Both the position numbers and the translations under genes were made by a program. The notes under the pieces are model-generated. The model saw only the letters and a list, made by a program, of their open reading frames with translations. It ran no database searches and had not been told where the DNA came from. A stretch of DNA of 64,000 nt. It comes from Psammoneis japonica (lineage: Eukaryota). Shown in pieces: positions 1 to 64,000 of the stretch. Position 1 is the stretch's first letter. Every line of letters begins with the position of its first letter. The DNA is taken from contig QPGO01000032.1 of NCBI GenBank assembly GCA_008632985.1, forward strand, positions 183,330-247,329, written 5' to 3'.

Positions 1-3000
1 AAGGACACTTGATGGAGCTGGGGTCATGGCAGAGGGTTTAGAAGGAGACACAGAATTCTTCAGTGCATTTGTTGCAGCTTGCTTGGATTCTTTTGGACCA
101 GGCAGAGTGGTTGAGGCCTTGGCAAAGTCATTGGGAGTGAAACCTGCAGCAGAAGCTGGAAGAGGTGAAGAACTTGGGGCAGGAGAAGGTTCTGGATGTG
201 GAGAGTCAGATGTGTCATTCCAACATTCATGAGATTGGAAACCAGGATGAACACAGAGATGGACAGTCCCAACACAGATTGTTGTGGCACCCTGATTGTC
301 TGCAATTGTTTTGATCACAGCCTTCTGAAGATTGGTGTGGTTCATGCAAATTGGAGAACTTTGAGGACAGCTGCAAAGAGAGCAGCCTTGTCCACAAGCA
401 CTGCAATCAATGTGCAATCTTCAGTCAGCACAGCTTTTGGGGTGATGAGATCCTGAACGGTCTTGTGACAGAGAGCTGCAATGGCACTGCTCTTGAGGTT
501 TGGAGGAGTGTGTCCATCCAGAAGATCTTTGGGAGCAGGTGTCTTGTCTGAACATGGCTGATTCAGGTGTCAATGGGCGTTGTGGGTGAGCAATGTTGTG
601 GTGTGAACTCAACCTGTGTTGACTTGATCTTGGCTTTAAATCAATGGCAGTTGTGTTCTTGTTGACCATGGTTGTGCATTAAAAAATTAAATTCCTTTGC
701 ACAGTGCTGGCATGTGTTCTGCAGTGGTTGTGATGATCACAAATTGAGAAAGAAAAATGGCTGTGACAAACATGATGATTTCAACAAAGAAACGCCACCA
801 AATCACACAGCAGGCATTGAAATGTGGCCATGCTGAGGAAGACAAACAGCGTGCTGCTGCTCACAACCTTCTTGCAGACCACTGGTGTTGGGACAATCTA
901 ATGACATCTGGGACAGATGGCAATGCTGTGCCAGAGAAGAAAGGAAGTGAGCAAAGGAGAGATCATTGGATCTCTCAAGTCTGTCTGTGCCAGTCTGTCT
1001 GATGCAAGGGAGTGCACTCCAAGTCTTGGGTGTCTGTCACTGTGCACAGTGCAAACTTTGTTTGCACACAAAGCACAAACACCAGTTGAGCACAACAAAT
1101 GTGCTGTCAACAACAGCCACTGGCTTCAGCACGTCATCATCATTGCAACAGCTGGCATTTGTTGTTGTTGCTGCACAGCATGCCACAAACTGTGTGAGCT
1201 CTGATTGTGCTTGGAGCAAGCTGGGCTGTGGCTGCATGCACTTGTGTCAGCTGCTGTTCTCTTGTCTCCAATGAAGTGCAGCAGTTTCATGCATTTTTCA
1301 AAAGTTTCTTTTGCCATGGTGTGCCCAAATGGGGTGGCTCCACCAGGGCACAGCATTTGCTCCAAACATCTTCAAGGTCTTTTTTGCACAAAATCATGTG
1401 TGATGTGTCTGTGGGATGAGAGCAGCACAGCAAAAGATGATGGCAGCAATGCAAAAAGCTTGTGAAAAAAAAATCCAGCTGCTGTGATGGTGATGGCCAA
1501 ACACAACAAGCAAGGCATCCAAACATGTGGAAACTTGACAAACAATGTCAGCAAAGAGTGTTTTCTCTTGTGTGGTTTCAGCAAATGGTCCCAGCATGAA
1601 GGTGCCTCAACTCAAACAAAACCAGAAATCTGTTTTACCTCTGCCTTGCTGCTGCCCACACCAACACCAACCACAGCAGACCCACATTCCCCAGTGCCCA
1701 CAAAGGGCAGCAGGGACAATTTTTTAACACTGTCAAACGTTTCAGAAAGACAATGCCATTGACACATTGTCCAAAGGCAATGCCGTTGATGCATCATCAG
1801 AAAGAGAGGCTGTTTGTCCAAGTCAGAACAGTGACCAACCGGATGCTTGTCACACGGCAACCCCAGTTGCTGTGCCTCAAAGAATGGACAAGCCCAGCCA
1901 CACCACTTGGGAGACACCAAAACAAACACTGCAGAAAACCAAACATGTGTCTGTCTCCAAAGATGGCATGCTTGAAGAGATGTGAGAGAAATTCCTGGAA
2001 TGAAAAACACCCAAGAAAGTCCAACACAAACCCCAACAAAGAAAATGAAATGATGATCAGAGTTGTCAGATGAAATTTCCGTCATGCGCAGAATTGTGCA
2101 GAAATTGTGTGCTGAAGCTGCAACATCAAAGAGCAAGAGGAGCAACAGCGAGACTTGGAAATGCCAACCACTTGGAAGACTTGTGATGACCCACTTTGGA
2201 ACACCATAGAACATCCATCATGATTTGCAGTGTGTTGGAAAGGAAACTCAAAGGAAGCACATTGGTGAGAAGAACAAGAGAATAAACCTGACCCGGTCGT
2301 TGACTTGGACTTCTGGCCAAATGCGTGGAATTGTGCGTGAAATTTGTGCTGAAGTGATTGACTTGGAAATTGTTGAATCACCTGGACTTTAACACAGAAA
2401 ACATGCTGACTTCAGGAAAGAAAATGCAAAGAAATAATGCGACACCATGGCGGCACCACTCCCTTGAATGTAGACACAACAGAGTGTCCCCTCCGACACC
2501 ATTTGGTTTCTCTGTCATTGGCGCAACTGCATGATGTCCCAAAGTGCCCGAGGAGGTTGGCATGCCACCACACTCTCACACAGGACAATCCCACTGGTGC
2601 TCGCACAGAATTGTGAAGGTGCGCCTCAACTCAAATGGCACAGCACACAGTGCTCTCACCCTGACAGACATGGTGGCTGCAAAGTGGCAAAAAACATTAC
2701 ATTGCACTCTGATTTGTGCCATGTTGTGATGATGAAATGCCACCCCTTTTGTGTTGGTGTGCAAAAATGGCCTTTTTTGATTCAAAACCATGTGTCAAGC
2801 ATCCAGCGCAACTGGCACTGTGGCAGCAGTTGATTGGCTGCATTTTCGCTGCATCTTTAATTCAAGCAGGGCTGTTGCAGCTCATGTGAGGAGGCTGCAC
2901 ACACACACATGATGAGGTTGGTGTTGCTTTTTGAGTTTCACTGTGTCTCTCACATTTGCGCACACTTTTTCTTCACCCCAAGCAGAAAAAAAGTGCAAGC

Positions 3001-3490
3001 CGCCACCAGCTGAGTTGCCCCAAGAACTTCTCCCACACCGCTGGAGACAATGTTCCCAGCACCAACATGATTTTTTTGCAAATGCCTCACCCCCCTTCTG
3101 CCACTTCATTTCTTTCACTTTCTTTGAAGACCCAGCCCGGCGCCTGGTGTTTTTCTTTTTGCAAGAAGCCGTGCAGCCAACGGCTCTGCTTCTTTTTGCA
3201 AAACAAACCTGGCTTGAAAAGGAAAAAAAAGCTGGGAAAGGGGGCTGAAAACTGCATTTCTTCCAGGTGGTGGCCAAGAGATTGCTGCAAAGAAGGCAGC
3301 TTGTTTTCTGCCCTATAGTGAGGGTGGTGGCCACACGGAGTGCGACAGCCTGTGTGATGATGTTGTGTGCGCCAGCAACAAGGAACAACACCCGCCCACA
3401 TCATGGTCTCTCCTGTGTGGTGCTTGTTCGATTTTTTGGCGGGAAATCAGCACGCACATTCAACGGAAAGTGTGACGAGGTCTCATCATT
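1..3490. mobile_element. Highly degenerate TE-derived block (TpA- and CpG-depleted)
   Basis: About 16 TA dinucleotides in 3.48 kb (by-eye count) and few CG. No intact ORF. Normal TA content returns abruptly at ~3490. Same signature as the identifiable TE relics elsewhere in the window. Confidence 0.75.
1262..1345 (-). pseudogene. Possible piggyBac-like transposase fragment
   Basis: Minus-strand peptide ATPFGHTMAKETFEKCMKLLHFIGD resembles the piggyBac 'M.R.RF..I...LHF.D' motif. Short and degenerate. Confidence 0.35.
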
Positions 3491-3855
3491 TTAAAATATT
3501 TAGTCTTTATAGTTTAAATAAAAAATTAATACCGCAGTAGTACTGTCGTTGCCTGTCGTACAATTTTTACGCCTGCCTGGTAGGTACATTATACTGTGAG
3601 CTACGAAAGCACTGCTGTAATTACGGTAAGTGACCGCGCGAGCAATGCAACAGCGAGGCTTTGCACGACGACAACGGCGGCGGCGGCACATCACACAAAG
3701 AGTTTGATCTACGCCGGCGCCCATGCTCTTCATCCTGTTATCAATTGGCTTTGTGTGGTTCTGGTGACCCTTATTCACTGCTCTTGGAGAGCTGTGTGTG
3801 ACTTGGTTCCACAGAGACTCGTGTTTTTGCATATTATTTAGAAGAGAGGAAGGAA

Positions 3856-6800
3856 ATGACACAATTGCCTGCCGATTCTCAGTACGTATCAGAAAAGGAC
3901 GAAACCCGGGTCATTTCGAACGATATGAAAGGCTCACAGCCTGCTGAGCAGCAGCAGTCTGCAAAAACGGGTGGAAGGAAGGGTTCAGAGGAACAGAGAC
4001 AGCCTCTTGTCTCTAATGCTGAAGGTGTTGCTGTCCGGAGCGAGGTCACCGCGACCCACAACGCAGCTGTAACGCATGCAACAGTAGCAGAGCAACCCAA
4101 AGCAGCAGTTCCAGCGGCGCGAGCTGCAAGTCCCGTTGCAGCGCAGAAGGCACCAGCGCCGACGTCCACTTTAGTGACGTCGATAAACGCACCTGCTCCA
4201 GCAGCTAAGCCTTCTGCTCCTCAGAATGTAGCGGCAATGCCTGCTCCTCAGAATGCCGAAGCACATGCGGCGAACCCTGCTGCGATTAAGAAGGGTTCTG
4301 TATCAGCAGCTACTCATTTTGGGGCACAGAAAGTACCTGCAGCAGCGACAAATCCTGCTGCGTCACAGAAACCACCAATTCATCCTCCTGTTGTCAGTCA
4401 TAAAGAAGTTAGTCCCAAGCTTGTCAAGCTGGACGTGAAGCAGGTACCTGTTGCGAAGACAAAAGGCCGTTTCAAGGTGTTGGCTACACCGGCAAACGTT
4501 CTAACCGTTGGAGATGGCGTCTCTGCGAGTTCAGATCCAGTGGGTGCGGCGTCGGCCGTAACAACAGCGGCTTCAGCCACAACACCTGTCAAGCTGACCA
4601 GAGAACCTTCGATCCAATCAGCTCCTGCTACCAGCAGTCCCTCCGATACCATTCCTCCAGCGCCCTCTACAGGAGAAATACCCTCGAAATTACCCGCAAT
4701 CATTACCTCAATGAGTCCTGGCACTAGTAGTGGGAGTAGCGTGGCACCAACACCCAACACTTCTCCTGCTGCACAACCAGCTGTGGCTATGAAGAAGGGT
4801 CGGTTTGTGGTGCTTCCTCCCGGGACAGCCGCAGTAGTTCCTGCCGCTCAACCGCCGCCGCAGCCGCCAGCACCACCTGCACAACCTGAAGTTGTGGTGG
4901 CTCCGTCACCTGCAGCCGCAAAACCTGCAGCGACGACTCCACCCGTCACTCCGGGAGCAAGTCAGGCGCAACATCCCGAGACGGTTCGTCGGGGAAGTTC
5001 CTCGTCCAAACCACCGGCTTCCTTTGATGCAAAGGGCTTGGCGTCTCAAGAAGGTTTAGGAAAAGTGCATTATTATTTGAATCAGATGAAGGCAGAAGTA
5101 ACCGAAGCGGAAAAGAATATGAAGAGTCTGCAAAACGAGCTGAAGGCATTTGTGAGTGTTTCTGAGATTGTACTGCCATGACAGAGTCGTGCGCGTACAC
5201 ATTATTGATTCTGCTCGTCACTTACACAAGCGCATTCTTTTAATTTACAGAAAGAGAAGAATAAAGAATTGGAAGCGAGGGCGAGGGAGATGGAGAGACG
5301 GTGGATCGAGGAGAAGGCTGCAAGAGAAGCATCGGACTCAAAGGTACGTACATTGCGAAGGAAGCTTAAGGAAGTAAAGGGAGCTGCAGCGCTGCCTGTG
5401 GAAGGCACTACTTCGGCACCGCATTCCAGGGGTAATTCAGTTGATAGCATGGACGAATTGGTGGGAACAAAAGTAGTGCCTCCCGCTGACATTTCCCCCA
5501 AGAAGGCCCCGCCACCGGCTGCCGCAGCGCAAACTGGAGCGGCCAAGTTGGGTACAATCTCGTCGAACGAAGACAGTAAACTTGCCGAGAAACAGGAAAT
5601 GATGGACTTGAAAATAGAAGGCAAGGTCATCGTGAAGGCCCAGGTTGCTGATGCAGTTGGGAAAAGCCATGCGGTTCCAGCCAAGACGGAGGACAAAAGT
5701 CATCGCAAAGCTTCGAGTATGGGAGTGGAAGTTATTGAGTTTTTGCAACCTACAAGGAAACGAAGTGGCTCATCGAGTATTTTAGAGGGAATCGTGGGTC
5801 AAAACGAATCTGCGCCTGCTTCCCCGAAAGCGCCGGCCAGTGTTCTTCAGATCGACCTTCAGTCGCCGCCGCCACCGCCGCAGCAGCCGCACGACGCACC
5901 CGTCCAGGAGATTGGCGGGATGGGAACTTCTGTTTCTGTTGCATCAAGTGTAACAGTTGCCGATACCAGAGCTGCGTTGAGCCAGGCGAAATCAACTCCC
6001 AACCTCTCACGACCGGTACATCAGGGTGTCCCCTTCAATACGATGAGTGTAAATGCAACGGTAGAGAATCCCCTACAGCATACTTCAAGTACGCCAAACA
6101 TGATGCTGGGGGACAACGGAATGATGATGGGGACCGCGAATGGCTCGGCAAACAACTTAGCTCAGATGGGCGTCCAGCCAGGTATGATGCAGCAGCAACA
6201 AATGATGAACATGGTGCAACAGCCGCAACAAGCTCAGCAAACGTCCATGAATCCTATGTCCCAACAAGCGAATGCAGCAGCGCGCCACTCTCGTAGTGCT
6301 AGCACCGGCTGGAGCCAAGATCCGTTGACGATTCAACATCCTATGGTAAGACAGCACAGTACAGGTCACGCCAACCAGTTTCATCAACAAGGGCCCCAGC
6401 AACAGTTGGCCCCGATGATGAATGGCTCGCAAGGGCCTCTACAAGGACAACATGTGATGGCGCAAGTGAATCAGATGATGAATACTCAACAGCCGCAGCA
6501 ACAGCAAATGATGACCGGACCGCAACCATTACCACAGCAGCCTCTGGTGCAAGGAAGCCCCACGATGAACGATTCACTCACGCACCAAGCACAACAGCAG
6601 CAAATGAATACCATGATGAACGGCCAGTTTGGTCAGCCACAGCAAATCCAGCGGGCACAATCGATGAATCAAATGATGAATGCTCAACAACAACAACCGT
6701 TGACGGGTCAGATGAACCCCATGATGAACGGTTCGCCTTCCACCCAACAGCAGATGAATACCATGATGAACGGCCCGTTGCCACAGCATCAGTTTCTGCC

Positions 6801-6957
6801 GGATCAATTACAGCAGCCGGTCCTTGGAGGGCAACCGTCTCAGCCTACTCTACCACAATCACAGCAGCAGCAGCCGAAACCATTAGCAATGAATGCGAAT
6901 GGAAGTTCCCATGCGGAATCGGACGAATTCACACAGTTTGTGTCGGAACGAAAGTGA
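3856..6957 (+). CDS. Low-complexity protein with two RFxV motifs, a central coiled coil and a Q/M/N-rich C-terminus; 2 exons (3856-5151, 5251-6957)
   Basis: ORFs 3856..5181 and 5269..6957 join in frame via a GTGAGT...TTTACAG intron at 5152-5250 (…ELKAF|KEKNKELEARAREMERR…), giving a continuous coiled coil. Normal TA/CG content. Confidence 0.8.
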
Positions 6958-7538
6958 GGTGAACGTGATGCGGTATTGGAGAAAGTTCCGAGTCCAAACA
7001 TTCTGAAGCATTTTTACCGAGGCTTGCCGTCGCGGGGAAGTTTTGAAAGTCCTACGCGACTTGTTGTTGAAGGATCTGCAATACATATATATTGCGGCAT
7101 AAACTTTGATCCTCTTGGCTGCCGCGAATTGTTTGTTTCATACCCTCTCTACTAGCCGCTCGATACAGTTCCGTGAAGACGCATCTTGGATTTTAGGAAC
7201 GAGCAATAAATAATGTGGGTACGAGAGATATGTAATTGTTGTTGTGAAACAGCCCATGAGGGATGGGTTGAATGCGACTGCATGATGGGATCAACATTGC
7301 GGACATGCTGCCACTTGAAATATCATAATTTTCCCCTTTTCTATAATTCAATTCCTGTTTATAAATATGAAATTGAATATTTTCTTATATTCATTTTGTT
7401 TCGCGCGGCCGTCATAGTACAGAGTACATACAGGATCCCACATCCCAATAGCACGCACAAAAACGTTATTATTTTTATTATATTATGGATATGAGATAGA
7501 CCTTGACGCATCACCCATTGTGTTTGTTGTTTGAGACC

Positions 7539-10500
7539 ATGGCAGAACCGGAGGAACAGGAGCAGCCACCACCGGTTGCAGAAGTAGATACGAACGTAGG
7601 GCGCTCGGTAGTATCGGATGACACACTTACAGTGGCACAGAACGATGAATTCATGAACTCTTCTATGCCCGACGCATCGTCTTCTCAACAGCATCAACAA
7701 CCGAACGTTCATCCCCATCAACTCCTGAATGCGCCGCAACCTTACCCGTTTCCCGCCATGCCCAATCAGGTACCGGATCCCATGATGATGGCACAATTTT
7801 ACGAGGCTCAAATGAGAGATCATGCAGCGGCATACGCTTCTGCAGCCGCTGGGGCTGCGTGGGCCGCGGCGCAGATTGCGTGTTCATCAGCTTCAGGCCT
7901 CCCTCCGTCTCTTCCACCAGCACCTTTCTTCAACGGACCTCCAATACCTCCACCGATATTTAATGGGCCATCATCAGTACCACCGGTATTTCATGGACCA
8001 CCGCCACTACCGCCAAATGATCCATCCATGTATCACGCCCAGCCACAACCGCCTCCCCATCGAACGGAAGCAAGTGCTTCCGAGGAGCGAAAGCCAAAGC
8101 GTCACCAATCTATGCCTGATGAATACTGTAGTGAAGCTCCACCACCGTGGCAGCCATCATTCTCTGGTCCTGGTAGGCCCGTTTATGCTCCAATGGGCAT
8201 GCCCGACGCTTCTTCGCCTCAGCAAGAAGGAGGAGGAGATCAGTGGACCGGACCAGGTATCGGAGAAGCAAGGCACATGCATCGTGGCAATTCTTTTGAT
8301 AGAAATGAAGGATCTACCAAACGAGGTCGACGGTGGCTGAGAGACAATGCAGGGTCCTCGGGAGGCGAAGGAGGACGTGGCGGAAAGCGAAGTGGTCGGA
8401 GCTCGGATGGATCTACAGGGAGCGGCGGATACTACAACAAGAAGCAGCAGCGACGATCGTCTGAGGACATTAATTTACTCAGCTTGGTCGGAAAGTCTGG
8501 AGTTACTGCTCTCCATGAGTTTTGTGCCAAGAAGCAGCTGCCACCTCCCAATTTCTGCAATGTTGAATCCTCTAGCCCCGATAAATTCTGCATTGCGGCA
8601 CTTATTGGAAAGCATGAGCGAGGAAGAGGGCGAGGCTTGAACAAGACATCGGCCAAGCAGGATGCTGCTCGAAGTGCCCTGCAGAAGCTCGTCTCTGGAA
8701 TCAAGTTTGATAACAATGGAAATGTGCTGCATGTACCCCGACCTCCTCCTTTCAGAACTCCCAAAAACGAGGCACTGGAAGACCTTGCTCCGAACCTGGC
8801 TTCGCAACTTGCGATTGGTACCCACGAACAAGACGGAGAGAAAGACGACAGTAACAAGAAGAGGCACCGAGGTACGACCAACAATAGCCAGATGACTGGG
8901 CGTAGCAGACAAAAACCGAAACGTCGATGGGTAGCATATCCCGGTACTTCAACGACTTCAGAAGACGAAGATAAGAGCGACGATACTGCCGCTAGGGGCT
9001 CTTCAGAATGGTCTTATTTGCTGCATGCAATGTGGCAAATCCGAGACGATATTCCAGAGCCACCGAGTTATACGTACGAATTTTTCCCGGTAGATCGCTC
9101 ATTCTCTTGTACGGCGAGCTTACTCGTAAAGCGGTCTGACAACAGCACAAGCGACGAAAGTGAGCTAAAAGACCGTAGTGGCGACATTGACTCTACGGTG
9201 AATTCGGAGCACGAAGCAAGGCTGTTACCGGAAAAAGAGGAAGGCAAAGGTGTGGATGCGGAAACGGACGGAAAGCGGCCAGGCACGGACAAAGCAGCTG
9301 AAAAATTGAGCGCTACAGATTACGGCAGGACCAAACGAGAAGCAAAGCATGCAGCCTCTGCGAAGGTTCTTGCTCTCCTATTTCCCAACTGTCCTGATAT
9401 GTCTGAGGTAAAGGCAGTGGCGGACGCCGCTCGAGAAGAATACGCCGCTAGGAGGGCGCTGAAACTGCAGCAGAATTCACTCTATTTCACCAACAATAGT
9501 CGAAAGAACCAAGACGGGGAGCACGATGCTGCAGCAAACTATCCTGATTTCTCTTTTGCTTTACCATCCCCATCCGACCCTCCTCTTCCAGAGTTCCTAG
9601 CAGAACAGCTCCGGCCTACGCTGAAGACTTGTGGGACTGCTCAGGGAAGCAAGCTTCCTTCGCCAATGGGCTCACCGCTGTGTGGTGTGACTGCCGGAAT
9701 AGCAAAAGTTGCAGCTCTCTCGCTCTCGGAGGCAGTGGAGGAAAACATTACCAAACAAGAGGATCGTACCGGGAGTGGCGATGCTTCGCGTGATGCGATT
9801 GCTCACAAGTCGAATCGTATGAAGCAACTCGAAGATGAAGTCGATGCTGCGTTGCATGTTATGAATGAACTGGACGAGACTGGGAAGTCACTTGCCGAAG
9901 AGTTGCCGGAAGATCAAGTCGGGCGAACGGTTCTCCGCAGAGCCACGCCTCATGACGTCGACTGGGTCAAGAGGCTATTCTCGAAAGCGCATGATTCAAG
10001 GCGGAAGAAGATTTGGCCTCGTGACAGATACCAGCCGGTCAGTCCGCTCTCTCTCTTGTCGAGAGATACCGATCAAAATGGAGCGGATACACATGCGCAG
10101 CTTTCTGGTTTATTATGGGGCTCGATGTCGGTCGTTTTGCTTTTATGTCGTGCTATTGCTCTTGACGACGAAGCTCCTCTGGGATGCGCGGTTCTGACTT
10201 TAGGATTCTCGATGGAAAAGGGGCGTCTTCTTCGAGTGTCCGAAATTGCACACGAAACGCATCTCCCAGAGGAACGCTTCATTGAATGCCTCGAAACTTT
10301 CTCCCAGAATATGAAATGCAGTCTTGAAAGACAATCGTTGGAGGCACCCTCCTCCAAGGAAGACAAGACACCGAAGAAAAGTTTCAACCGATGGTACTTG
10401 AGGTCAATCGTTGAAAGTCATGTGGAGAATGACACAAGAATCAAGACCATGAAGTACGACAAGGTCGTCGAAAATGCTTCTCTGTTGAGCGCGAGTGCTA

Positions 10501-10637: not shown

Positions 10638-10961
10638 GGTACAGAATAAGTAACTAGAGCACACCTTTTGGCGGGAAACATGCTTCGCCTTGATCATAGC
10701 GTATGTCCGTTTCGTCATTGCGTTCTGAGTGATGTCGCTTTTTCACGAGGTTGAAGGTCCGACGGCGCGGATACCGAAGAACATGGGTGAACGTCAGCTA
10801 TGCGGAACGTGGTATGAATCTTTCGTAGAATCTACGTGCGCAGCTTGCACTACTACGAATTACGTAGAAAGAAAGACGCGGGAAAGATCGCGACCCGCTG
10901 TTGCCAACTGCTCACTCTTCTCACAATTTCTTGTCAAACCGAAACACATTGAATTTCAACG

Positions 10962-14146: not shown

Positions 14147-14215
14147 AGCACGCTCATGAAGAATTTCAAATTATCGACTTCGGCTGGTCAAATTCCAAAT
14201 TCCAAAACATTTAAG

Positions 14216-53660: not shown

Positions 53661-53773
53661 GCTCGAGCCCCGGAAACGTCGCAGAATGGAACAATCTATT
53701 TTATGGTAATTGATGTTGTGGCGGTGTTATTTTTTTGTACATTGCAGTAGGAAAGTGTGTGCAGAGTTGCAAT

Positions 53774-56303
53774 TCACAACTTCGCATCCTCGTGTGCTGC
53801 AGCTACGCGAGTTCGCGTTGCCAACCTTTCAGCGTTGCTGATCGGCCTTGAATTGCAAACAAGTTTCAATGAGTCACTGGATTTGAGTGCAGAGTAACAA
53901 CTTAACAGGAAGACATGGCACATTCGCCATGTTCCCTTTCTCTGTTTTAAGTCGAAGGAGGGCGGCATACATTTCAAAAACTTCTGGCGCAAAGGTGCGC
54001 TTTTTCGGGCCGTTTCCAAAATCCTCTTTAGTGTTTGTCCTCGGTGATGAATCACTTGTCTAGCATTGAAATTTACCATGAACATTGCCTCCAAAAGGCA
54101 CATGAATGCAAACCAGCTTTCGCCGCTTTGTCGTAATGCCCCGGGTTTGTAATCTTATCGTCAACAATGCGAGTTGGCATCTTGGCATCGCGCGCAGCCT
54201 CCAGGCTCACAGTGTTGAAAGCTACAAAGGCAAGAAGAGTTTCTTTGTCTGCTCCTCTCAATTTGACATCACGTGCTTTGTTGATCAACCACCCCGAAAC
54301 ATGACACACCGTGTGACTGGCCCCGCCACCTCTCAGACGATCGACATTGTTGTGTCGTCTACGTCATCATCCATTGCCGTCTCAGTTTGTTTGTAAAGAT
54401 AAGATTCCCATGCTTCATACAAGTTTTCATGCAAGCGCCCAAAATATGTTCGCACCAAAACAAAAGATGGGTCACTCCCTTGCAGGAAGTTTTCAACAAC
54501 AAACTTGACGAATCAATGCGCCTGTCTCGCTTTCTCCATGCAAGTGCTTCTTCAACCCGTTTGTCAACAGTGTTTGGTTTTGCTTGATCTAGTGTCCAAC
54601 ACAACTTGCGAGAAAATACACCAATTTCAGAATGTAAACATTCTTTGAGAGATTCACTTCGAGCAATTGCATCGAGCCTCACACTGTTGGCAGTTGATGC
54701 CGAGGCTGTTTTTGCCAGGGCGTCTTCAACACATTTTGATGCATCAATTGCTTTCACAATTTCATCAATTTCACATCCATCATGTTTGCAGACAGGAAGA
54801 GGAACAATGCCCTTTGATTGTTTGAACTTGAGCCACCGCTGAGAACAATGCCGTCGGTTCTGAAGAATGCACAGAGATCGCAAGAGAACGTCAAACTCCG
54901 TGTCGTCGCCTTTCCTTGGCAAGTTCTGTCGCAATGTCCACATCCGGGCATTTGATCGATCATAAACTCACATTTGAAAAAACTTGTCCAGCTGTTCCCT
55001 GCATTCTGCACAATTTGGTGGCTCCTCTGAAGCAACAAGAGGGGGGACGGTGTCAGGCGGCACCTCGGGTGCTGCCATCTCATCCGATTCTGTGGCGTTC
55101 GACACCCACTGATTCACTTGGGCAGAAGCTTCACTCTCAATATCGGGTGGAATATCATCATATTCTTCAAAATCATCCTCTTCTTCAAATTCTGAAGACG
55201 AATCAGCTGCCGGTACAGTCGTCATCGTAAAGAAACAGCTCTCGCTTCAGTGTCGGAGGGAGAAATAAAATTCTCAGATTGCACGTAATTTCAGTGCTGA
55301 AACACAAGTAGAAAGGACAGCAAAAAGACGTGCAGGCCAACCCACATTCACAAAATGGGACTCTCATGGAGGCCCACCCCTGTGGCAGGGGAGCTGTGTG
55401 TGTGTGCGTGGTTGTGCGCACGGCTTTGCCGTGCGTTGAGTTTTAATGTCAATGTCCACACGGCAAGTGCAAAAAGGGAGTGGCACAGCGATCCCACACT
55501 GCACTTGCAGGCACCCAAACTCCATCGTTGAGGCAGAGTTTGCCAAAATAATTTGGAACTCTGTCGATGACATCATGAGCTGTGACAGAGTCAATGTCCC
55601 AGCGGAGCTCCCATCCTTCTTCTTGGAGACGTGTGGCGACTGTTCCGATCCATTCACGCTGCTCCTGAAATGCTCGGAGGTCCGCAAGATCCTGTGAGCC
55701 TGGAGTGCATTCGTCGAGTTCATCCTGAGGGCATTTGTCAGGATCATTTTCATGGAGCAAAGACAACAAACGTTGGCAGTCTTTGTCAAGAGTCTTTTCC
55801 TGAGGGTGCCGATGCACGCCAATCTTGCAAGTAACGCCATTGCTTGGGTCACACCCCAACTCAAAAATGTCATGTTCATCATAATCAGAGTCTTTGTCGT
55901 CATCAAGCGTGGCAACAGACGACGCCATTTTGTTGGCCACAACACCCAAAAACGCCTCTGAAGCAGCAAAGCCATCAGTGCACCGCTCCCAGCAGTTGCG
56001 GTTCGTGTCTGGCTTGGCATCTTCTAAATTACACACCCTGATGTCAAAGTCATTCGGCTTGGTGTCCACCTGTGTGCAGGCGCGGCCCCCGAGAACGACC
56101 TGCCACTTGAGATTCGGACCCATGACGGCCAGGGATGTGGGATCCACCACATCAGAAAGAATGCCATCACTGCCAGTGCTCTTCTCCGTCAACGACGATT
56201 TCCTCATCCACACACCCGTGTCTCGGGATGATGATGTTGCAGACAGGAAGCGATGGAAACCACCAGCGCGAAACGAATGGCTGATGCCGAGACGACACAA
56301 CAT
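53774..56303 (-). pseudogene. Decayed ORF(s) convergent with the P-like transposase, probably the same element
   Basis: Minus-strand pieces 55449-56303, 54968-55225, 54359-54943, 54073-54309 (CHVSGWLINK) and 53774-54103. Protein-like and partly TA-depleted. Confidence 0.5.
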
Positions 56304-56615
56304 TAAAAATGTGGAGGGATTGCAGCACCTTCAATTGTCAAAGGCAAAGCAATGATCAAAACGGGAGCAGACAGCCAAACAAAAAATGGTTTCGCGATCG
56401 ATTTTGCCATCGCCAAAATTCATTGCGTTCGTCCGTCGCATTGGCACAAATTTACGTAGATTCTACGTGCTTGAGCTCTGGCGCCTGTAAGATCGGGTTT
56501 TCAAATTGTCGTAGAAAGCTGCGTGTTTTTACTGCCAGGGTGCCTGCACAAGCTCTCTCGCCATTTTTGAAATCTTGCTGTTGTTGTTAGACTCTTTTTT
56601 CTCTTTGTGACCATT

Positions 56616-56881
56616 GACGTCCATTTGTGCCTCATGACATTTGCGACATGCGTTTGTCAATGTTCGATTTCTGTGGCCCCGAATTGTTTGCACGTGCGGC
56701 CCTCAAATTGAAGACATCTCAAACACTTGTCGAAAAACACTTGTTGAGACGTCTGTTTGTGCCTCACGACATTTACGACACGCGTTTGTGAATGTTCGAT
56801 TTCTGTGGCTCCGAATTGTTCACACGCATGGCCCTCAAATTGAAGACATCTCAAACACTCATCGAAAACACTCATTGAGAC
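56616..56881. repeat. Tandem duplication, 132-bp period
   Basis: gacgtc..tttgtgcctca…aatgttcgatttctgtggc…ggccctcaaattgaagacatctcaaacact starts at 56616 and again at 56748. Confidence 0.92.
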
Positions 56882-57899
56882 ATTCGTCTTCTCACCTTTT
56901 CGAAATTCAAAGTGCAGCAATCACAACCAGTTCATCTGTGTTCATCACGAGGCTGGTTGTCAACTTAGTTCTGATTGCAAACTGTTGGCTCACACGCTTC
57001 CTCTGCGACAAAGTGTTCTCAATCGAACCAGCAACGTTCTCAGGAACTTCAAGACCTCATCATGGCGGATGCTGACGCGCTTGCTGATGCCATCGCACAA
57101 GCCATCCAGGCGGCTGTCCAGCCGACTGTGAACAACATGCTGCACACTTTTTGTGTGTTTGGCTTGTTGTGAGGCAGTGATGGTTTCTAGTTCGGGATGC
57201 AAGAACCAATGCAAGAAGGGTGTGCAGGTTGGTTTCGAAGCGTCGTTGTCTTGCTGCTGTTTGTTGGCTTCTTGCTGCTTGATTTTTGAATGCACATGAG
57301 GTGCACTGCCAGAGCGGCCAAGGCAGTGACTGTTGCGATCGCAGTCAGTGTCACAGCGGTCATTGCCGTGGCTTGGTTGTTCGCATTGCTTGTTTTGTCT
57401 TGTTCTTCTCCTTCGTTGTGATCATTCCTTGGATGCACCTGCTGGGCTGTGAGCAAGCTCAGACCACCAATCAACAACAAGAAAGTGCCCGCGAGAAACC
57501 ATTGCAGACTGTCCGCGGCCGGAAGAGCACAGCCACAGCAACCGCAACCACAGCACTTCATTCTTTTTTGTTCTCTTGTCTGTGAGAGTGTTTGTTTGGA
57601 AGCAAGGCACGACAGTGGGAGAGAAGTGACACAACAAACACACAGCAATGGCTTCAACGTCTTGTGACTGTGTTTTGGCGATTCCAAATTTCGGGTGTGC
57701 CACGAAAAAACTGGTTGTCAGCCAGACGTGCTGACTCGTGATTTTGGCGTGAACCTCAACCCGATCGATGATGATGGATGAGAAGCCCACAGCCCCTGCA
57801 AACCGTGTCACCAAACTTGACACAATTGTTCTTCGCACTCTCAATTCATTGCACAAATTGCTGACATGACAAAATCAACAACCTCTCCCGGCCATGCAA

Positions 57900-60560
57900 G
57901 TCCTTCAAAAGGTGAAGCTGTGTTTCTCATCTAATCTGCATGGCCAGCAGAATGGTCTCCTCAGGCTCGTTTCTTTCTTTGCGACAAAAGGTGCTCGGAG
58001 AAAAACTCTTCGCCCCTGCACTCGGGGCAATCTCGTAGATTCTCATGCTGTGGTGCTTTGGATCCATGCTTGGTGGACCTCTGTTGATCTCCAGCAACTT
58101 GAGATGGTTGCAATGAATGGGTTCAGTTTGAAAATGGCTTGGGATCTCGGGTGCATTTCTTCCGAACAGTTTGTGCCACAGCTTGAGATTGCATCGACAC
58201 GTGCCGCGGAAATTCAAACTGTCGGTGAGCATTCGCTGCATGCCCATGTTTCCAAAATGAGCTGGCAGATGGTGAAACTTTTCCAATGAAGACTCGCCCT
58301 TTTCAGAAATGCATCGAGGTGGTTTGTGTTTCGATTGGGCAGATGCGAGTTTCTTGTGGCAGTCGCCAACAATCTCTGGCAGATGCTGAGCTTTTCCATC
58401 AACGCTCTCACTGCTTGTCTTGCTCCTTCCATGAACAGGGTTTTTCCATTGTCCAGCTCTCCTTGTCCTGCTGGCTCACCATCACTGTCACTCACTTTGC
58501 ATGGGCACCACCAGTCCCTCAACTTAATCCTTGCGAGCTCTCCTGGAACAGGAATCTTTTGGATGCACTGCCCACAGCGAAATCCAAGATCTCATCAGGC
58601 TGGTGGATGCAGCCATTCATTGTCCCGTCTCGCAGTGTTGCCACTGCGGCTGCTTCATCCGCTTGGTTCAGACTGCACAGGCAGCTCAAGAAAGAGCGGA
58701 GAGCTTTGTTGAAATCCTTGTGATCTTTCCGCATGAACTTGGTGACGTGCTGAATTGCATGGAACAAGCCAAGTTGACCAATTGTTGCAAATCCGTACAT
58801 TGTCTTGAAGAATGGATCAAGATTGGGCCATGCATCCATGTGCACATGCTTTGGGTTAAAGTTTGGTCATCTTGCAGTTTGCTCAACACCGTGGGCACTG
58901 TCTGACATTGCGGCAGAGTCAACAAGTCCAAGCCAGGTGATGAATCCCGCATCAGTTGACTGCTGGCACAAGCTTGAGTGCCCAGTGATGATGGGCAGTT
59001 GCTCAACATTGCGTGGGTGTGATTGAAGGCTGCAGAAGTTTTGCAGCCGCATGACTGCATTTCTCTCTTGTGACGGTCGTCGTCGCTCACGCCACACATG
59101 GTGAGATCAGAGGAGTTGGCTTCTTTGCAAAGATCTGGCAACTGAGCACTTGATGGCGGGCACTGTCCTCGCCACTCTTCAATTGATGGAAAGTCTGGAA
59201 AAGGTTTGTCCTTGCAACTCTTGTCAGAGCTGCAATGTGACAGTTCCAGTTCTTTGTGCCGATGGTTTTGACTTCAGAAGAGCGTTCGTGACACCCACTG
59301 TGCACCAGATTCTGTTAGAGTGGCCTCCTCCAGCAGAAAGGACACCTCTTTGTGAAGCAAGAAGAAGGATGGCTTCGAGCAATGCAAGGGATCTGCTGGG
59401 AAGCTTCAATGTGCGCAGTCTTGTAGAGAATGACGCAGCAGTCTACCATCACACGACTTGACAAACTCTCCACAATTAGAGCACTTGTGTGCAATGCCAT
59501 GCTCCCAACCCGCATGACCTTTTGTTCTGAAAATGGGCATCGCACTGCTTGCAAACCTGGTGCCGCCGCACTCTGCCCTCGTGTGCTCCAGAAATCCGTC
59601 CCACATGAAAAACACTTCAATGGCAAGTCTGGCATGTTCAGTTCCCACCGAGCCAAACATGTTGTTGAGCCTTGAATGGACTCATGCATTGGGTCGGGAA
59701 CTTCATTTTCTTTCCCACCCACCAACAACACCGTGAACGCAACATTTCCACACGGAAAGTGGTCGCGGCACCAAGAAATGCGTTGTTCACCTCCACCAAG
59801 CTTCTTGGCACCATTGGAGTTGGTGCAAACTCTTGGGCATTGCATGTGAATGAATTCCAGCAATGCCAAAATTGGAAGAGGCACTTTTCTGTTGTCTTGA
59901 GCGAGTTGCTCTTTCTCACTTGTGCTCCACGTTGACATCACAGCGGGTGTCGCTTTTTTAGATGCGACGCAGTCATTTTCTTGTGCAGCAACGGCTTCAA
60001 CACATCCTTGGATTCAACGCTGCTGAGAGCATCCCCAGCTGAATTGTTGTTGTTGCTGGGTGGATTAGAATCTGCTGAGGACTCAGACACATCAAAAAAC
60101 ACTTCTTGTGCACTTTCTGCACTTCCCTCTGGCAAAGAGAAAAAAGATCTTTCCAAAAGGCTCCTCAAATGAGATTGTTTCTGCAATCTTGTGGCAGTGC
60201 CACAAGGAAATCTGGCTCTACCTCTTTCAGAACTTGAGTGACAATTTTCTCTGGCAGCTTGTAATTTGAAGCATTTGGATTCTTGTGGCATGTGTCGTCA
60301 TGACCCTTCTTGCAACCCGGCCCTTTGACACACCGTTTGCACGTTTTCGTTCCGAAGTCAACCCGAGTTGTGACTTTTTCACAAATCTTCTTGCTTTTCT
60401 TGCATTGATTGCACCTCCATTTGAGTTCATCAGCTTTGTCAATTTCCTTTTTCTTTCTACGTCACTCCGCTTCACCCTCTTTTGTGCACTTGTTCAAGGG
60501 GTGGGGCATCAGCCTCGATGCATTTTGCTTCAACTCCTTCAGTCGCGAAGGACTTGACTG
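57900..60560 (-). pseudogene. Unclassified DNA-transposon transposase-like relic
   Basis: PKHVHMDAWP…LGLFHAIQHV and CISEKGESSLEKFHHLPAHFGN, an 'RGxSxLExFH'-type motif I associate with transposase-like ORFs. Heavily decayed. Confidence 0.5.
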
Positions 60561-62829
60561 GCTTTTTGGCCCCACCATTGTTTCAAGTGCAGGCATGGAA
60601 ATGAGAACGCAAAGGGGCTCTTGACAAACCCTTGTTGAAAAGGAAAGATGTTGATGAAGCATGAAGTGTGCACTTGCAACAACGATGAGGGTTGTTGTCA
60701 TGAAGAGCGTTCCAGAAAAAGGCCAAAAAGATGGCGCGCGACGACGACTGTCACACTTCTGCGGATTTTTTGTATGAGGGGGGGGGGGGATGTCACAGGT
60801 GCTTAAATGAGGCTGAATTTTGTGGGGGGCTTGAGCAAATGCACCCCCCCCCCCCGCAAAATCGGGCAAGGAGGGGTGTGTGACTCTGGAGAATCACCGC
60901 CACTGGTGCACGTGAGATTTGCAGGAAGGTTCTTGGCATCAACTGTGGAGAACCACAACACTGCTGAGAGGTGTTTGTGTGGCTTTCACAAATCAGCAGG
61001 TGGTGGGCCAAGGGGGAGGCCACTCCATTTGTCCCTCATGCAAGAAAAACGGCCACATCGGCCTGCTGCTGCTTTGGCACCTCAAACAAGCCAATGTGCA
61101 AGACAAGTGATTCACCTTGGCATGCGCCACTGTGCCATGACAGTTCAGCACATGTTGTGATTGCAAAAGGCAAAACAGAGACAGGGTCATGATGTTCTGC
61201 AGGCAATGCAGCAAGATGCGCGGCCTCACACATCTGCTGTGTGACAAAGGAGTGCACCTGGAGGCAGTTTCCAAACTGCTTGCAAAGTTGTGCTCCAAAA
61301 AATGCTGCCAGGAACATGCCAAAAGAGAGAAAACCAGTGCCAGGCAGCATGACAGGAGTCTCAACTGTGCCTCTGGAAGAGATGCAAGAGAGCCTTGCTT
61401 GCACTCACAAGAAGCACCACAAAGCCACTTGACTGCAGTTGGATGAGGAAGCAAAGAAGAGAGGTGCTCGCTGACTTCACACCAGTGCTTTGTTCAAAAA
61501 AGCAAAGCACCTGTGCCAGCAGTGCCACGACAGCTGCCCCATGCAAAAATTGGGGTCTGAGTGCTCAGTCGCAGAGAGACAGAGAATTTCTGTTGTGTGT
61601 GAAATTGTTGTGAGATCATTTTATGTAGAGCATGCGCATGTGCAACAGCAAGACACACTGAGCACGGAGTTCTGAGTCCTTGCACGGAATCAGTCACACT
61701 CGGCACTGCGCACATCCTGCGCAGACCCTTCATGCAAGGTGAGTCACTTGCGCGATGGCCAGTCGCGCCGGTCTCAGTCGTGTGGACCCCTGCAGCCTCT
61801 CGCAGGTCTCATGCTGCGAGTCGCATTTCCCAATCGCGCTTCTGCGGGATCAGCATCGCTGCGGACAGCCTGCAGACGCAGGAAAGCAGCATCAACCGCA
61901 ACGACGGCTACGCAGCGCAGGGATGCCTGCTGCACAGCACAATCTTCAAAGGCCTTGTTGCCCATGCAAACAAGATTGCCCAGACTGGGTGCAGCGCCAC
62001 ATTGTGCAAGACAGCCGTGCCCAGATGCAGAGCACAATTGCTGCACTCAAGCTGTTTGGCCAAAATCATCCATTGGAGATGATTTTCACTGACAAGACAG
62101 GAGCAGACAAACTCTTCCTGCTGCAAGAGGCTCTGCTGTTGCAGTGGTGCAAAGCCAGGCACAGCCCAGCTGCTTCAGCCCAGCCAAGCAATGATGAACA
62201 TTGTTGGAGCAAGTTAGATGAGGGTGTCAGAGAACCTGGAAACAGTTGAAGTCTGTGGATGTTTGTCTCCTGATGTGGCTGCCCGTCTGATGACGATGTG
62301 TTCTTTGTCATTGCACTGTCGTCCCCAAAATGAAGCATTCTCACTCTTTGTGGTGAATCATCTGGTCTGTCAACTGTTTTCATTGGTGCTGGGAAGCACC
62401 TGTTAAAACCAAATCCTTTTGGTGTGTGAAGTTACGTTGAATGATCTTCCAGGCAAAGAACCACAGCCGCACAAGCAGTGTGTGTGTCAAGAGTGGAGGA
62501 AGCTTTGTTTGCCACCATTGACATGTTGGTTCAACATTTGCTCCAAAGAGTTGTGAGCGTGTAAGAGACAGCTCACCATACGAAGTCTACATTCTCTCAA
62601 AGAAATGAGCAGCCTGCACGATGAGTGGCAGAGGAGCAAGCAATCCGCGCAAGAAAGGCCAAGACCAAAAGTGTGGCCAAGGCAGTGGAAACAAGAACCA
62701 CAAGTCTTCTGGATCAAAGCAGAAGACACACAGCAACAGGAGCTTTAACCCTGAAATAAATTCCATCCATCAATGATGAACAGCAACTCTTGCAACCCAA
62801 CGTTTGAAGATGTGAACAAGACGAAGATT

Positions 62830-63500
62830 GTGCATTGCATCCAGAAAGAGCACACACAAAAAGAAAGTGCTTGGCACTGTCACTTGAAGACATGAAGTGT
62901 CAAGACTTCTTGGGTGAAGAACCAACCTTGAAGGTGTCCAACGAAGCAAAGGGCTCACCAGAAGCAGAGCAAGAGAACAGACAGTTCGAATGTGAGCACA
63001 AGGCTGAACTTGGAGATCGCCAATGCAAGACAAAACAGCTCAAGGAGAACAAGAACAAGGCACTTGCAATGATTCTCAATGACTGCTGCACGAAATTAAT
63101 GAGGCAGAGAGTGCAAGCAGATCCAACCTGCAAGGCAATCAGGGACAATCCTGTTGAGCTGCAGCGTTCAAGGCCAGCAACATGGGGCCACACATGCTCA
63201 AACTGAGCAAGGAGTTCTTCGAGAACGTCCAATGGCTGCAAGAAGAAGAGTGACACACAAGTCTGAATGTGACAAAGATGAGGAAGTCAAGGCAGAAGAT
63301 GCCAAAACCCAGCAGTGAGTCAGGGGCCGTGATTCCATCTGCCAAAGAAAGCGCCAAGAAGGGCTGCACAAAACAGGAGATGTTGCAAGCAAAAGAGGCA
63401 CCGAGATTCTGTTGTGAAGCCAGCATCCCAAGCATGTGGGATTGCAAACATTTCTTGTGTTCTAATCAGGTGAAGAACTTGACCATTGCACCAGATGATG
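62830..63500 (+). pseudogene. Copia (CoDi-type) gag-like fragment
   Basis: QLKENKNKALAMILNDCCTKLMRQRVQADPTCKAIRDNPVEL resembles diatom Copia gag as I recall it. Confidence 0.55.
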
Positions 63501-63532
63501 CTGATTGAATGGCGGCCATTTGGGGTCCACCA

Positions 63533-63935
63533 GACGTGTTCCAGCTCTAGGTGGGACCTCGTACCACTGAACTGTGACATAATTATTTTTTATCATCCGT
63601 CGCATGTTTCGCACGTACATTTCTACGTGTTCTCTATTATAAAAAATTGTTCCACACTGCCTGTTTTGCGAAGCCAAAGGCTTTCTGTTACTGCATCTGC
63701 ACTTATGTCAATAAAAATGCGCTGGGTATATTCTTTAATGTCTAAAGAATATACCCGGGCATGCTGTAAAGAATGTACTTCAAGTGTGGAGGAGGAGATG
63801 CGTTCGCAAAATTGCCTCTTTTTCTGTTGGCGATCATTCATATATTCATTGCTTAATAATTTTACTACGGAGCTCGCACGTAGAATTCTACGGGCCCAAT
63901 GTCACAAAAAGTCCCACCTAGGACTGGAACCCGTC
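63533..63935 (+). mobile_element. 403-bp MITE (subfamily B), TSD ACCA; least mutated copy
   Basis: ~25-bp TIRs GACGTGTTCCAGCTCTAGGTGGGAC / GTCCCACCTAGGACTGGAACCCGTC, flanked by ACCA/ACCA. TA-rich, unlike its surroundings. Confidence 0.96.
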
Positions 63936-64000
63936 ACCAGAGGATGTGATTAAAGGAAAGACCAAGGGTGCTCACCATTCCCACGGGTGGAACGATGTTG

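Follow-up and report, generated by a model that had tools for sequence, protein, structure and literature searches.

We report that approximately two thirds of a 64-kb window of the diatom Psammoneis japonica (contig QPGO01000032.1, positions 183,330 to 247,329, numbered here 1-64000) consists of silent DNA that bears transposons and has TG or CA in place of almost every TA dinucleotide. These TA-poor blocks are very probably silenced mobile or foreign DNA of the diatom nucleus that has been rewritten in place, from TpA to TpG or CpA, to near saturation. The window is best taken as a further case of the TpA hypermutation described in the chlorarachniophyte Bigelowiella natans (Mettrop et al., bioRxiv 10.64898/2026.01.13.699255). 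A sequence-only reading of the same window had proposed a process of this sort and knew of no described system with its spectrum; it was right in kind, but its claim to novelty is outdated, as the same spectrum has been measured in B. natans as reported in that preprint. What the window adds is a quantitative flank rule, near-saturation of the change, co-occurring CpG decay, and targets that are not viral.

Over the whole window, the observed/expected ratio (O/E) of TA is 0.27, with 1-kb bins that span 0.02 to 0.79 and a bimodal pattern along the sequence. We delimited TA-poor segments with a two-state hidden Markov model (HMM) on the probability of A given T, applied to positions 1-64000 (Table 1). 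The pooled depleted DNA comprises 42,494 bp and contains 250 TA where base composition predicts approximately 2,570 (O/E 0.10), with CG at 0.55, TG at 1.59, and CA at 1.62. The corresponding values for 17,777 bp of pooled host or genic DNA are 0.60 (TA), 0.97 (CG), 1.14 (TG), and 1.17 (CA), which bears out the distinction between TA-poor blocks and ordinary host genes that had been drawn by eye. Most 1-kb bins of the blocks lie at 0.02-0.21 for TA and at approximately 1.3-2.3 for TG and CA, and TA/AT in the blocks is approximately 0.11. Other dinucleotides are not affected in this way. AA/TT stands at 1.27/1.26 in the blocks versus 1.12/1.17 in host DNA, CA and GA show no depletion, and AT is slightly down (0.88 versus 0.97). 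Because AA, CA, and GA are undepleted, the change is limited to A preceded by T, which is the same as T followed by A; an excess of A-to-G change at TpA over other NpA was one of the checks that the earlier reading had called for. The same comparison disfavors DNA polymerase eta-type repair with its WA-to-WG preference, a candidate that the reading had named and that we dropped, since AA is not depleted (O/E 1.27 versus 1.12).

The mass balance of the pyrimidine-purine (YR) dinucleotides indicates where the missing TA went. Depleted DNA has 241.8 YR dinucleotides per kb and normal DNA has 241.7, and their total is kept within each of the 16 flank contexts (ratios of 0.87-1.22). Relative to normal DNA, the depleted DNA has 32.0 fewer TA and 24.1 fewer CG per kb, together with 35.7 more TG and 20.5 more CA. 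The loss of CG supplies 24.1 of the 56.2 extra TG and CA per kb and accounts for none of the TA loss. The loss of TA is conversion to TG and CA, not a consequence of base composition. The sequence-only reading had stated that neither fungal repeat-induced point mutation (RIP) nor the decay of methylated CpG removes TpA, which holds, but it gave too little weight to the CpG decay that accompanies the TA loss here (CG O/E of 0.55 versus 0.97). Across 39 depleted 1-kb windows, TA depletion and CG depletion are correlated (Spearman 0.46, p 0.003), and therefore the two either both track the time spent silenced or share targeting.

The blocks end within a few base pairs. At position 3491, the preceding 175 bp contain 0 TA and the following 136 bp contain 23; by eye, approximately 16 TA had been counted in the first 3.48 kb and more than 20 in the next 150 bp, close to the 16 in 3.49 kb and 23 in 136 bp that we obtain. 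Similar switches occur at 14316, 16967, and 24567, and at such edges 175-320 bp with 0 TA give way to one TA per 6-20 bp. These edges bear on a rival explanation in which a genome-wide bias from TpA to TpG/CpA is offset by purifying selection that keeps TA in functional host DNA, the blocks being old neutral DNA. The correlation of TA with CG depletion is expected if both follow age, and the TA-normal islands within the depleted DNA could be young. However, selection on function leaves TA switches a few base pairs wide unexplained, and the host segments, which include intergenic DNA and probable introns, nonetheless average TA O/E 0.60 and CG 0.97. The rate difference of 1000-fold between regions of one B. 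natans genome is likewise at odds with a genome-wide bias, which we consider improbable, although it survives better than the other rivals discussed below.

We next consider whether the assembled bases are real. X1 is a sequencing run available as contigs with a word depth of approximately 50-fold; its technology is not on record. It contains 0.85 of the 31-mers sampled from block 14316-16967, which has 5 TA in 2.65 kb and approximately 100 "missing" TA sites, or about one per 27 bp. Miscalled TA at this spacing would wreck nearly every 31-mer, and miscalling is therefore unlikely; support of the assembly bases by reads was another check that the sequence-only reading had asked for, and for this block X1 provides it. 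When X1 contigs were compared with 44001-64000 at a likeness of at least 80% in 30 bins, all 30 were covered, and transitions made up 1,508 of 1,901 kinds of difference. Of the 40 best-supported sites where the window disagrees with every X1 contig, 21 have TG or CA in the window versus CG in X1, and 4 have TG or CA versus TA. The larger class may represent allelic or paralogous CpG polymorphism or residual miscalls of 5-methylcytosine (5mC) in the assembly. Two other runs, X2 and X3, contain next to none of the words of the window, and no RNA run is listed among those that contain them.

These comparisons leave very little room for an artefact in which modified bases (5mC at CG and a modified A or T at TA) were misread in an unpolished long-read assembly. 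The 21 differences of the TG/CA-versus-CG class are what 5mC miscalls would give, and a random choice between TG and CA without strand runs would fit conflicting strand calls. Yet that class arises equally from CpG polymorphism, only 4 of the 40 differences are of the kind that miscalled TA would produce, and X1 has most of the 31-mers of a nearly TA-free block. The coding relics and graded transposon copies described below show real divergence, and the same spectrum was obtained from Illumina data in B. natans. The TA-poor blocks are not an assembly artefact.

Self-comparison of the window identified one dispersed family, a miniature inverted-repeat transposable element (MITE) of approximately 400 bp with terminal inverted repeats, present in six copies. 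The terminal inverted repeats are approximately 25 bp long and the target duplication is 7 bp. Copies c63533 and c45644 differ at 40 places, of which 23 are single exchanges between TA and TG or CA and 5 are transversions, in keeping with the earlier claim that paralogs differ mainly in this respect. At 29 aligned TA sites, 23 are changed in c45644 (15 to TG and 8 to CA), and in this single pair TA sites change approximately 30-60 times faster per site than other sites. None of the 18 CG was lost from c45644, so the loss of TA can run without loss of CG. Both products, TG and CA, occur within single MITE copies, and therefore both strands are struck, as had been proposed.

Five lines of evidence favor TA to TG/CA as the direction of change. 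First, single columns of the MITE alignment show TA, TG, and CA, and 13 columns hold all three without CG; TA alone lies a single step away from each product. Second, an irreversible model in which TA and CG go to TG/CA costs 122 events on the tree and 166 on a star, compared with 131 and 208, respectively, for a model restricted to C-to-T changes. Third, c63533, which is rich in TA, is a genuine recent insertion. It is flanked by a 7-bp duplication, and X1 has a precise empty site, where two contigs join 63527 to 63935 with 7 letters that fit both sides. This copy and two further TA-normal copies are nested within TA-free DNA, and the TA content of c63533 is ordinary (O/E 0.83, TA/AT below 0.89). 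Fourth, every tyrosine codon contains TA, and at the nine positions where P0003, the homolog of the open reading frame (ORF) at 55452-56330, has an aligned Tyr, the window encodes C, C, C, H, H, P, S, D, and F. Thus, 5 of 9 Tyr correspond to Cys (3) or His (2), and the reverse pattern occurs once. Fifth, the opposite direction would leave 42.5 kb of unrelated sequence, coding relics included, at a TA O/E of 0.10 without explanation. Two other potential outgroups gave nothing: the same Tyr comparison for a transposase relic in the depleted DNA was uninformative, its 23 aligned homologs averaging 2.4 Tyr per 130 amino acids (aa), and Rfam (E ≤ 0.01) and a tRNA scan found nothing, and hence no RNA-gene relic to serve for comparison.

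The opposite polarity would make the TA-poor state original and the TA-rich MITEs mutated, either by a RIP-like change of CpA to TpA or by serial change of CG to TG/CA to TA. Unconstrained parsimony over the six copies is of little help, as it gives 28.8 changes of TA to TG/CA versus 22.7 of TG/CA to TA; the C-to-T-only model meets no impossible column, and the pair c63533/c45644 alone gives no direction. That model nevertheless needs more events and implies an ancestor with 38 CG and 0 TA in 70 YR columns. The TA-rich copy c63533, the youngest by its nesting and its empty site, has ordinary TA and does not differ from c45644 in CG (18 versus 18). In B. natans, moreover, the de novo mutations go from TA to TG/CA. 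We regard a reversed polarity as highly unlikely.

The extent of TA loss depends on the flanking bases. The ratio of NTAN frequency in depleted DNA to that in host genic DNA is 0.021 for ATAC/GTAT, 0.024 for ATAT, 0.059 for both GTAC and ATAG/CTAT, 0.10 for ATAA/TTAT, 0.20 for CTAG, 0.21 for CTAC/GTAG, 0.235 for GTAA/TTAC, 0.30 for CTAA/TTAG, and 1.03 for TTAA. These values follow a trinucleotide rule in which the 5' flank of TA ranks A>G>C>>T and TTAA is spared; six of the seven blocks show this sparing. That TTAA is protected is firm, that it is completely immune is not. In an additive half-site model, the contribution of a strand is set by the base on the 5' side of its own T, and the four palindromic contexts supply the values (A 1.87, G 1.41, C 0.80, and T 0). 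For four of the six mixed contexts, the prediction comes within 1.8-fold of what is observed (predicted/observed: ATAC, 0.038/0.021; ATAG, 0.069/0.059; ATAA, 0.154/0.101; GTAA, 0.244/0.235), with poorer fits for CTAC (0.11/0.207) and CTAA (0.449/0.304). The MITEs show a trend that agrees with this rule, as TA retention is 0.16, 0.26, and 0.38 at sites with 0, 1, and 2 refractory flanks, respectively.

The flanks also point to the base pair that changes. In xTAA contexts, xCAA is enriched by 1.55/1.59/1.44 versus 1.20/1.34/1.01 for xTGA, and MITE sites with one refractory flank show the predicted product 20 times versus 11. The altered pair is therefore the one adjoining the discriminating flank. 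Depending on the strand that is read, the motif is 5'-N[T>C]A-3', with N ranked A>G>C>>T, or 5'-T[A>G]N-3', with N ranked T>C>G>>A. Since TA is self-complementary, alteration of the A and alteration of the T cannot be distinguished from sequence. The sequence-only reading had the A of TpA converted to G; the transition at TpA stands, but the assignment to A rather than T goes beyond what the sequence shows.

The recognizable content of the depleted DNA suggests what has been targeted. Pfam searches of ORFs in these blocks yielded three domains only, namely Hcp, TNP-like_GBD, and TNP-like_RNaseH_C. The latter two lie in a decayed P-element/THAP9-type transposase relic that has 36 homologs in a representative library and chance matches only in the PDB. 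Hcp, the tube protein of bacterial type VI secretion, is represented by a relic at 36148-36522 (PF05638, E 1.7e-13; PDB 1y12, residues 6-85 aligned, E 2e-10) for which a word-based search returned no homolog; it may stem from a gene acquired long ago from bacteria and silenced afterwards. A similar start motif, FLKID..., occurs again approximately 400 bp downstream of the relic, near 35940-35990, which suggests tandem Hcp copies. Within the stop-to-stop ORFs of the window that were scanned with Pfam (overlapping sets of 83, 150, 150, 11, and 29, with some ORFs of 75-103 aa left out), there was no reverse transcriptase, integrase, RNase H, or gag domain, and no viral capsid or other viral domain. 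NCBIfam gave 0 matches for 58 ORFs of 24.8-38.7 kb, a protein atlas gave no usable match for ORFs of 407 and 356 aa, and P0003, used as a query in a word-based search, matched only itself. Of the earlier claim that both retrotransposons and DNA transposons are hit, the part on DNA transposons is upheld by the MITE and the P-type relic; the part on retrotransposons finds no counterpart in the scanned ORFs.

Copy number does not seem to define the target. The summed X1 depth over two MITE bins is approximately 45,000 versus approximately 50 for single-copy contigs, so the MITE family is very abundant, and yet this highest-copy element has a pristine copy, c63533. Several depleted bins of 44001-64000 have an X1 depth of 75-160 versus approximately 50 for single-copy DNA. 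Because depleted bins can be of low copy number and the most abundant element retains a pristine copy, "silent or foreign DNA" is a better description of the target than "repeats"; a bacterial-type Hcp relic is among the depleted parts as well. The earlier view of the process as restricted to repeats is not supported.

The nature of the targets, together with the arrangement of the products, bears on whether the change was made in RNA. In a runs test on TG and CA, z lay between -0.5 and +1.5 for six blocks; the seventh, at -3.3, resembled one host segment. This lack of strand runs speaks against an editor that works processively along RNA or along one exposed strand. In the RNA-level alternative, transposon transcripts or double-stranded RNA (dsRNA) undergo A-to-I editing by an ADAR- or ADAT-like enzyme, and the edits are fixed by reverse transcription before integration. 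Adenosine deaminases typically prefer a 5' U/T, as noted in the B. natans preprint (bioRxiv 10.64898/2026.01.13.699255), and sharp element-wide borders are expected if whole copies were edited before insertion. But of the recognizable targets, the MITE and the P-type DNA transposon do not pass through an RNA copy; the third is the Hcp relic, and the Pfam-scanned ORFs lack a reverse transcriptase. The strands are struck equally, with interleaved products, and the graded loss among MITE copies fits accumulation after insertion. ADAR prefers G as the 3' neighbor, unlike the order T>C>G>>A found here. Mutations in B. natans, finally, arise in DNA that is already integrated. We regard an origin in RNA as highly unlikely. 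We likewise rejected ADAR-like editing as the identity of the process on its 3' preference, the involvement of both strands, and the DNA transposon targets; ADAR-type editing would show a 3' G, an RNA substrate, and strand clusters, as opposed to 3' T>C>G>>A and no runs in 6 of 7 blocks.

The closest known counterpart is B. natans, a chlorarachniophyte. In the preprint of Mettrop et al. (bioRxiv 10.64898/2026.01.13.699255), which reports on 15 mutation-accumulation lines, 231 of 302 nuclear single-nucleotide mutations fell in integrated regions of nucleocytoplasmic large DNA virus (NCLDV; 186 kb) and virophage (25 kb) origin. The rate in the viral regions is given as approximately 6e-7 per site per generation, 1000-fold over background; 230 of the 231 mutations were A to G or T to C, all 230 of them at TpA, and activity was seen in 11 of 15 lines, intermittently between lines. 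The same source describes 124 TpA-poor, CpA+TpG-rich clusters in the genome, mostly unannotated and enriched in reverse transcriptase, DDE, and foreign domains, with a footprint defined by a rho of ≤0.43 for TpA and of ≥1.52 for CpA+TpG in clustered 1-kb windows. Its authors propose, as a hypothesis, an ADAT2-like DNA adenine deaminase and note an Asn that is permissive for DNA in deaminases of this type, and its main text mentions neither diatoms, nor trinucleotide or flanking context, nor CpG (bioRxiv 10.64898/2026.01.13.699255). Our literature search returned no report of TpA loss in diatom repeats and no second paper on the B. natans phenomenon.

As far as the preprint describes it, the B. 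natans phenomenon and the diatom window share the change of TpA to TpG/CpA on both strands, the confinement to non-host regions of a nuclear genome with normal neighboring DNA, and TpA-poor, CpA+TpG-rich, mostly unannotatable clusters with transposon and bacterial-type domains. The window shows A-to-G and T-to-C transitions almost exclusively, since the loss of TA and CG is matched by the gain of TG and CA; it shows them at TpA only (TA O/E 0.10, with AA, CA, and GA undepleted) and within confined regions (edges of a few base pairs, host genes at TA O/E 0.60). The pooled values of 0.10 for TA and 1.59/1.62 for TG/CA lie beyond both footprint thresholds. The two cases also differ. B. natans belongs to Rhizaria, whereas the host here is a diatom and hence a stramenopile. 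Depletion is deeper in the window (O/E 0.03-0.15 over 42.5 kb) than in the NCLDV region, for which the preprint gives a rho of 0.45. What can be recognized among the targets of the window is a MITE, a P-type transposon relic, and an Hcp relic, and no viral gene occurs in the scanned ORFs. CpG decay, absent from the main text of the preprint, co-occurs in the window, and the process is known here from its footprint, not from de novo mutations.

Other systems resemble the window in part. Like fungal RIP, the change is an irreversible, in-place transition hypermutation that is dinucleotide-specific, affects both strands, and leaves sharp compositional blocks. RIP changes C to T at CpA and raises TpA, however, whereas here TpA is erased, GC goes up, and TA/AT is approximately 0.11; RIP is excluded as the identity of the process by its opposite direction. 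RIP is also triggered by duplication above a certain length; in the window, the MITE of approximately 400 bp, at an X1 depth of approximately 45,000, has a pristine copy, and parts of the depleted DNA are of low copy number in X1. Decay of 5mC at CpG likewise produces TpG and CpA, and CG O/E in the blocks is 0.21-0.63 versus 0.97 in host DNA. Alone it cannot remove TpA, for which reason we rejected it as the sole process, and the two are separable here, as c45644 lost TA and no CG. APOBEC3, which changes C to U in cDNA, and ADAR, which changes A to I in dsRNA and favors a 5' U, also have strong nearest-neighbor preferences, and if the process in the window is enzymatic, all three would be cases of editing that cripples invading nucleic acids. 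Unlike APOBEC3 and ADAR, whose substrates are single-stranded cDNA or RNA and whose edits form clusters with a strand bias, the process here affected integrated DNA, including DNA transposons, without runs. In dinoflagellates, another lineage of the stramenopile-alveolate-rhizarian (SAR) group, 5-hydroxymethyluracil (5hmU) is reported to be enriched on repeats and transposable elements (Marinov et al. 2024, PMC11071213). That paper cites work of the 1980s in which 5hmU of Crypthecodinium showed a TA/TC preference and recovered no TA preference in Breviolum (PMC11071213). The likeness lies in a thymine modification that, according to this source, marks repeats; the difference is that it is a modification, not a mutation, and any link from 5hmU to a T-to-C change would be an inference of ours.

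We propose that a DNA-level process converts TpA to TpG or CpA in place, by A:T-to-G:C transitions that strike both strands independently and stop within a few base pairs of the segment edges, with a slower decay of CpG to TpG/CpA running alongside. A DNA-level, TpA-specific process confined to silent or mobile DNA and distinct from RIP and 5mC decay had been postulated before and is supported here; the polarity is from TA to TG/CA, and X1 bears out the sequence itself. It would be the same kind of process as in B. natans, an enzyme-driven base change at TpA aimed at foreign or silent DNA. Our leading candidate, to which we would give somewhat less than an even chance, is an ADAT2/TadA-type deaminase that would work on DNA and deaminate the A of 5'-T-A-Y-3'. 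In our data, T at -1 is obligatory, and the +1 order T>C>G>>A fits a T-A-Y preference; both features resemble the U-A-C loop that is the native substrate of TadA and ADAT2, with a pyrimidine at +1. No other hypothesis has been published. The main alternative, clearly less probable, would be oxidation of T in 5'-R-T-A-3' by a TET/JBP-type enzyme to a product that pairs with G. Oxidized thymine mispairs with G, and this route is plausible because action on duplex DNA would fit the absence of strand runs; dinoflagellates, moreover, have a repeat-enriched 5hmU for which a TA/TC preference is reported (PMC11071213). What probability remains would fall to something else, such as biased repair.

Several points weigh against this interpretation. 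The basis is a footprint in one 64-kb window, not de novo mutations, and X1 may be the sample from which the window was assembled. Most of the depleted DNA has no recognizable protein or repeat identity; only the MITEs and the P-type and Hcp relics are shown to be foreign or mobile. The polarity is drawn from converging indirect arguments, with unconstrained MITE parsimony ambiguous, and the Tyr comparison depends on one homolog, P0003. The baseline of the flank rule is host genic DNA, in which TTAA is already rare (share 0.065), and the leftover TA could in part be newly created TA. With respect to the enzyme, the lack of strand-coordinated runs counts against a deaminase of single-stranded DNA, as does the refractory A at +1, given that ADAT2/3 edits tRNAs with A35. 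As for thymine oxidation, we know of no such product documented in diatoms, and among the matches listed for "diatom" with "5-hydroxymethyluracil," all titles concern dinoflagellates.

The host DNA between the blocks contains several genes (Table 1). None of them is evident as the effector in the 64-kb window, in agreement with the sequence-only reading; the protein with a dsRNA-binding domain (dsRBD) was considered and dropped, as it lacks a deaminase or nuclease domain. The gene for a fucoxanthin-chlorophyll a/c protein (FCP) has as its best PDB matches FCP chains, which we take to be diatom entries. The HMM called 10888-11500 depleted (TA O/E 0.12, CG 1.04), a false positive that we attribute to the strong codon bias of the FCP gene, with normal CG. 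The low TA of this gene looks like codon-usage avoidance of TA under high expression, and in a TA-only scan it imitates the signal of hypermutation.

The TA-normal islands at 39207-40273 and 53604-54445 have no convincing terminal repeats. The former contains a 10-bp tandem array (39619-39796) of TGATTACTTA-like units, in which every TA lies in a TTAC/TTAT context, that is, with one refractory flank. MITE copies c26738 and c28103, in inverted orientation, flank approximately 1 kb of depleted DNA. GC-rich degenerate tandem arrays occur within the depleted DNA at 37090-38290 and 48974-49886; the first has a CA O/E of 2.72 versus 1.76 for TG, and its ORFs are open in all six frames. The loss of TA deletes the stop codons TAA and TAG and all Tyr codons, which leaves ORFs of 200-400 aa on both strands, such as one of 407 aa at 24793-26013. 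Most long ORFs of the depleted blocks have no homolog; they may be spurious and a trap for gene prediction.

Table 1. Segments, mobile-element copies, relics, and genes located in the 64-kb window (+ and -, strand; O/E, observed/expected ratio; TIRs, terminal inverted repeats; LRR, leucine-rich repeat)
Feature	Position	Strand	Description
TA-depleted block 1	9-3491		16 TA; O/E: TA 0.07, CG 0.21, TG 1.91, CA 1.75
TA-normal host DNA	3492-14311		Unknown ORFs, dsRBD protein, FCP gene, LRR protein
dsRBD protein	7500-10634	+	1045-aa host ORF; sole recognizable feature one dsRNA-binding motif, residues 336-397
FCP gene	10953-11558		Best PDB matches at E 2e-93
LRR protein	12994-13920		Host gene
TA-depleted block 2	14316-16967		5 TA in 2652 bp; TA O/E 0.03, CG 0.38; between LRR and Sec24 host genes; holds most mutated MITE copy
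MITE c14870	14870-15241	-	1 TA, 6 CG; most mutated copy
TA-normal host DNA	16969-24563		Sec24-like gene and other ORFs
Sec24-like gene	17117-20698		Host gene
Large TA-depleted compartment	24567-63546		Segments at TA O/E 0.07-0.15; four TA-normal islands within
MITE c26738	26738-27130	+	11 TA, 22 CG; TA-normal island in depleted DNA
TA-normal island	26818-27137		HMM
MITE c28103	28103-28495	-	15 TA, 22 CG; TA-normal island; inverted relative to c26738
TA-normal island	28148-28514		HMM
Hcp (type VI secretion tube protein) relic, bacterial type	36148-36522	-	3 TA in 375 bp
TA-normal island	39207-40273		HMM; TA O/E 0.65, CG 1.11; 10-bp tandem array at 39619-39778
MITE c41238	41238-41628	+	8 TA, 12 CG
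MITE c45644	45644-46039	+	6 TA, 18 CG; 90.8% identical to c63533
P-element/THAP9-type transposase relic, decayed	52981-53632	+	5 TA in 652 bp
Relic domain 1, GTP-binding insertion domain	52981-53370		Pfam PF21788 (TNP-like_GBD), E 7.7e-6
Relic domain 2, RNase H C-terminal	53384-53632		PF21789 (TNP-like_RNaseH_C), E 0.0015; follows the GBD in order
TA-normal island	53604-54445		HMM; TA O/E 0.40, CG 0.98
293-aa ORF	55452-56330	-	Multi-copy depleted DNA; one homolog, P0003, 38% identity
MITE c63533	63533-63935	+	30 TA, 18 CG; TA-normal; TIRs; 7-bp duplication CACCAGA
TA-normal end segment	63548-63999		HMM

A mutational defense that erases TpA would be the mirror image of fungal RIP, and such a defense has been reported so far in one 2026 preprint only. 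The diatom footprint places it in a second SAR lineage, one that is ecologically dominant and has genetically tractable species, which suggests that TpA hypermutation is widespread rather than a curiosity. The flank rule can discriminate between candidate enzymes, and the 231 mutation-accumulation events may be too few to yield one. A natural DNA-level A:T-to-G:C editor would interest base-editing work. For annotation, blocks of this kind defeat homology-based identification of repeats and genes, as all Tyr codons and two of the three stop codons are gone and long spurious ORFs take their place. It is possible, though somewhat less likely than not, that diatoms and chlorarachniophytes share an old, homologous defense that rewrites TpA in foreign and mobile DNA on duplex chromatin, with a trinucleotide code (R-T-A best, TTAA immune), alongside cytosine methylation, and with a DNA adenine deaminase or thymine oxidase of novel action as its effector. 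If this is true, the diatom footprint would be the best available record of the specificity of that defense, and its gene would best be sought in tractable diatoms.

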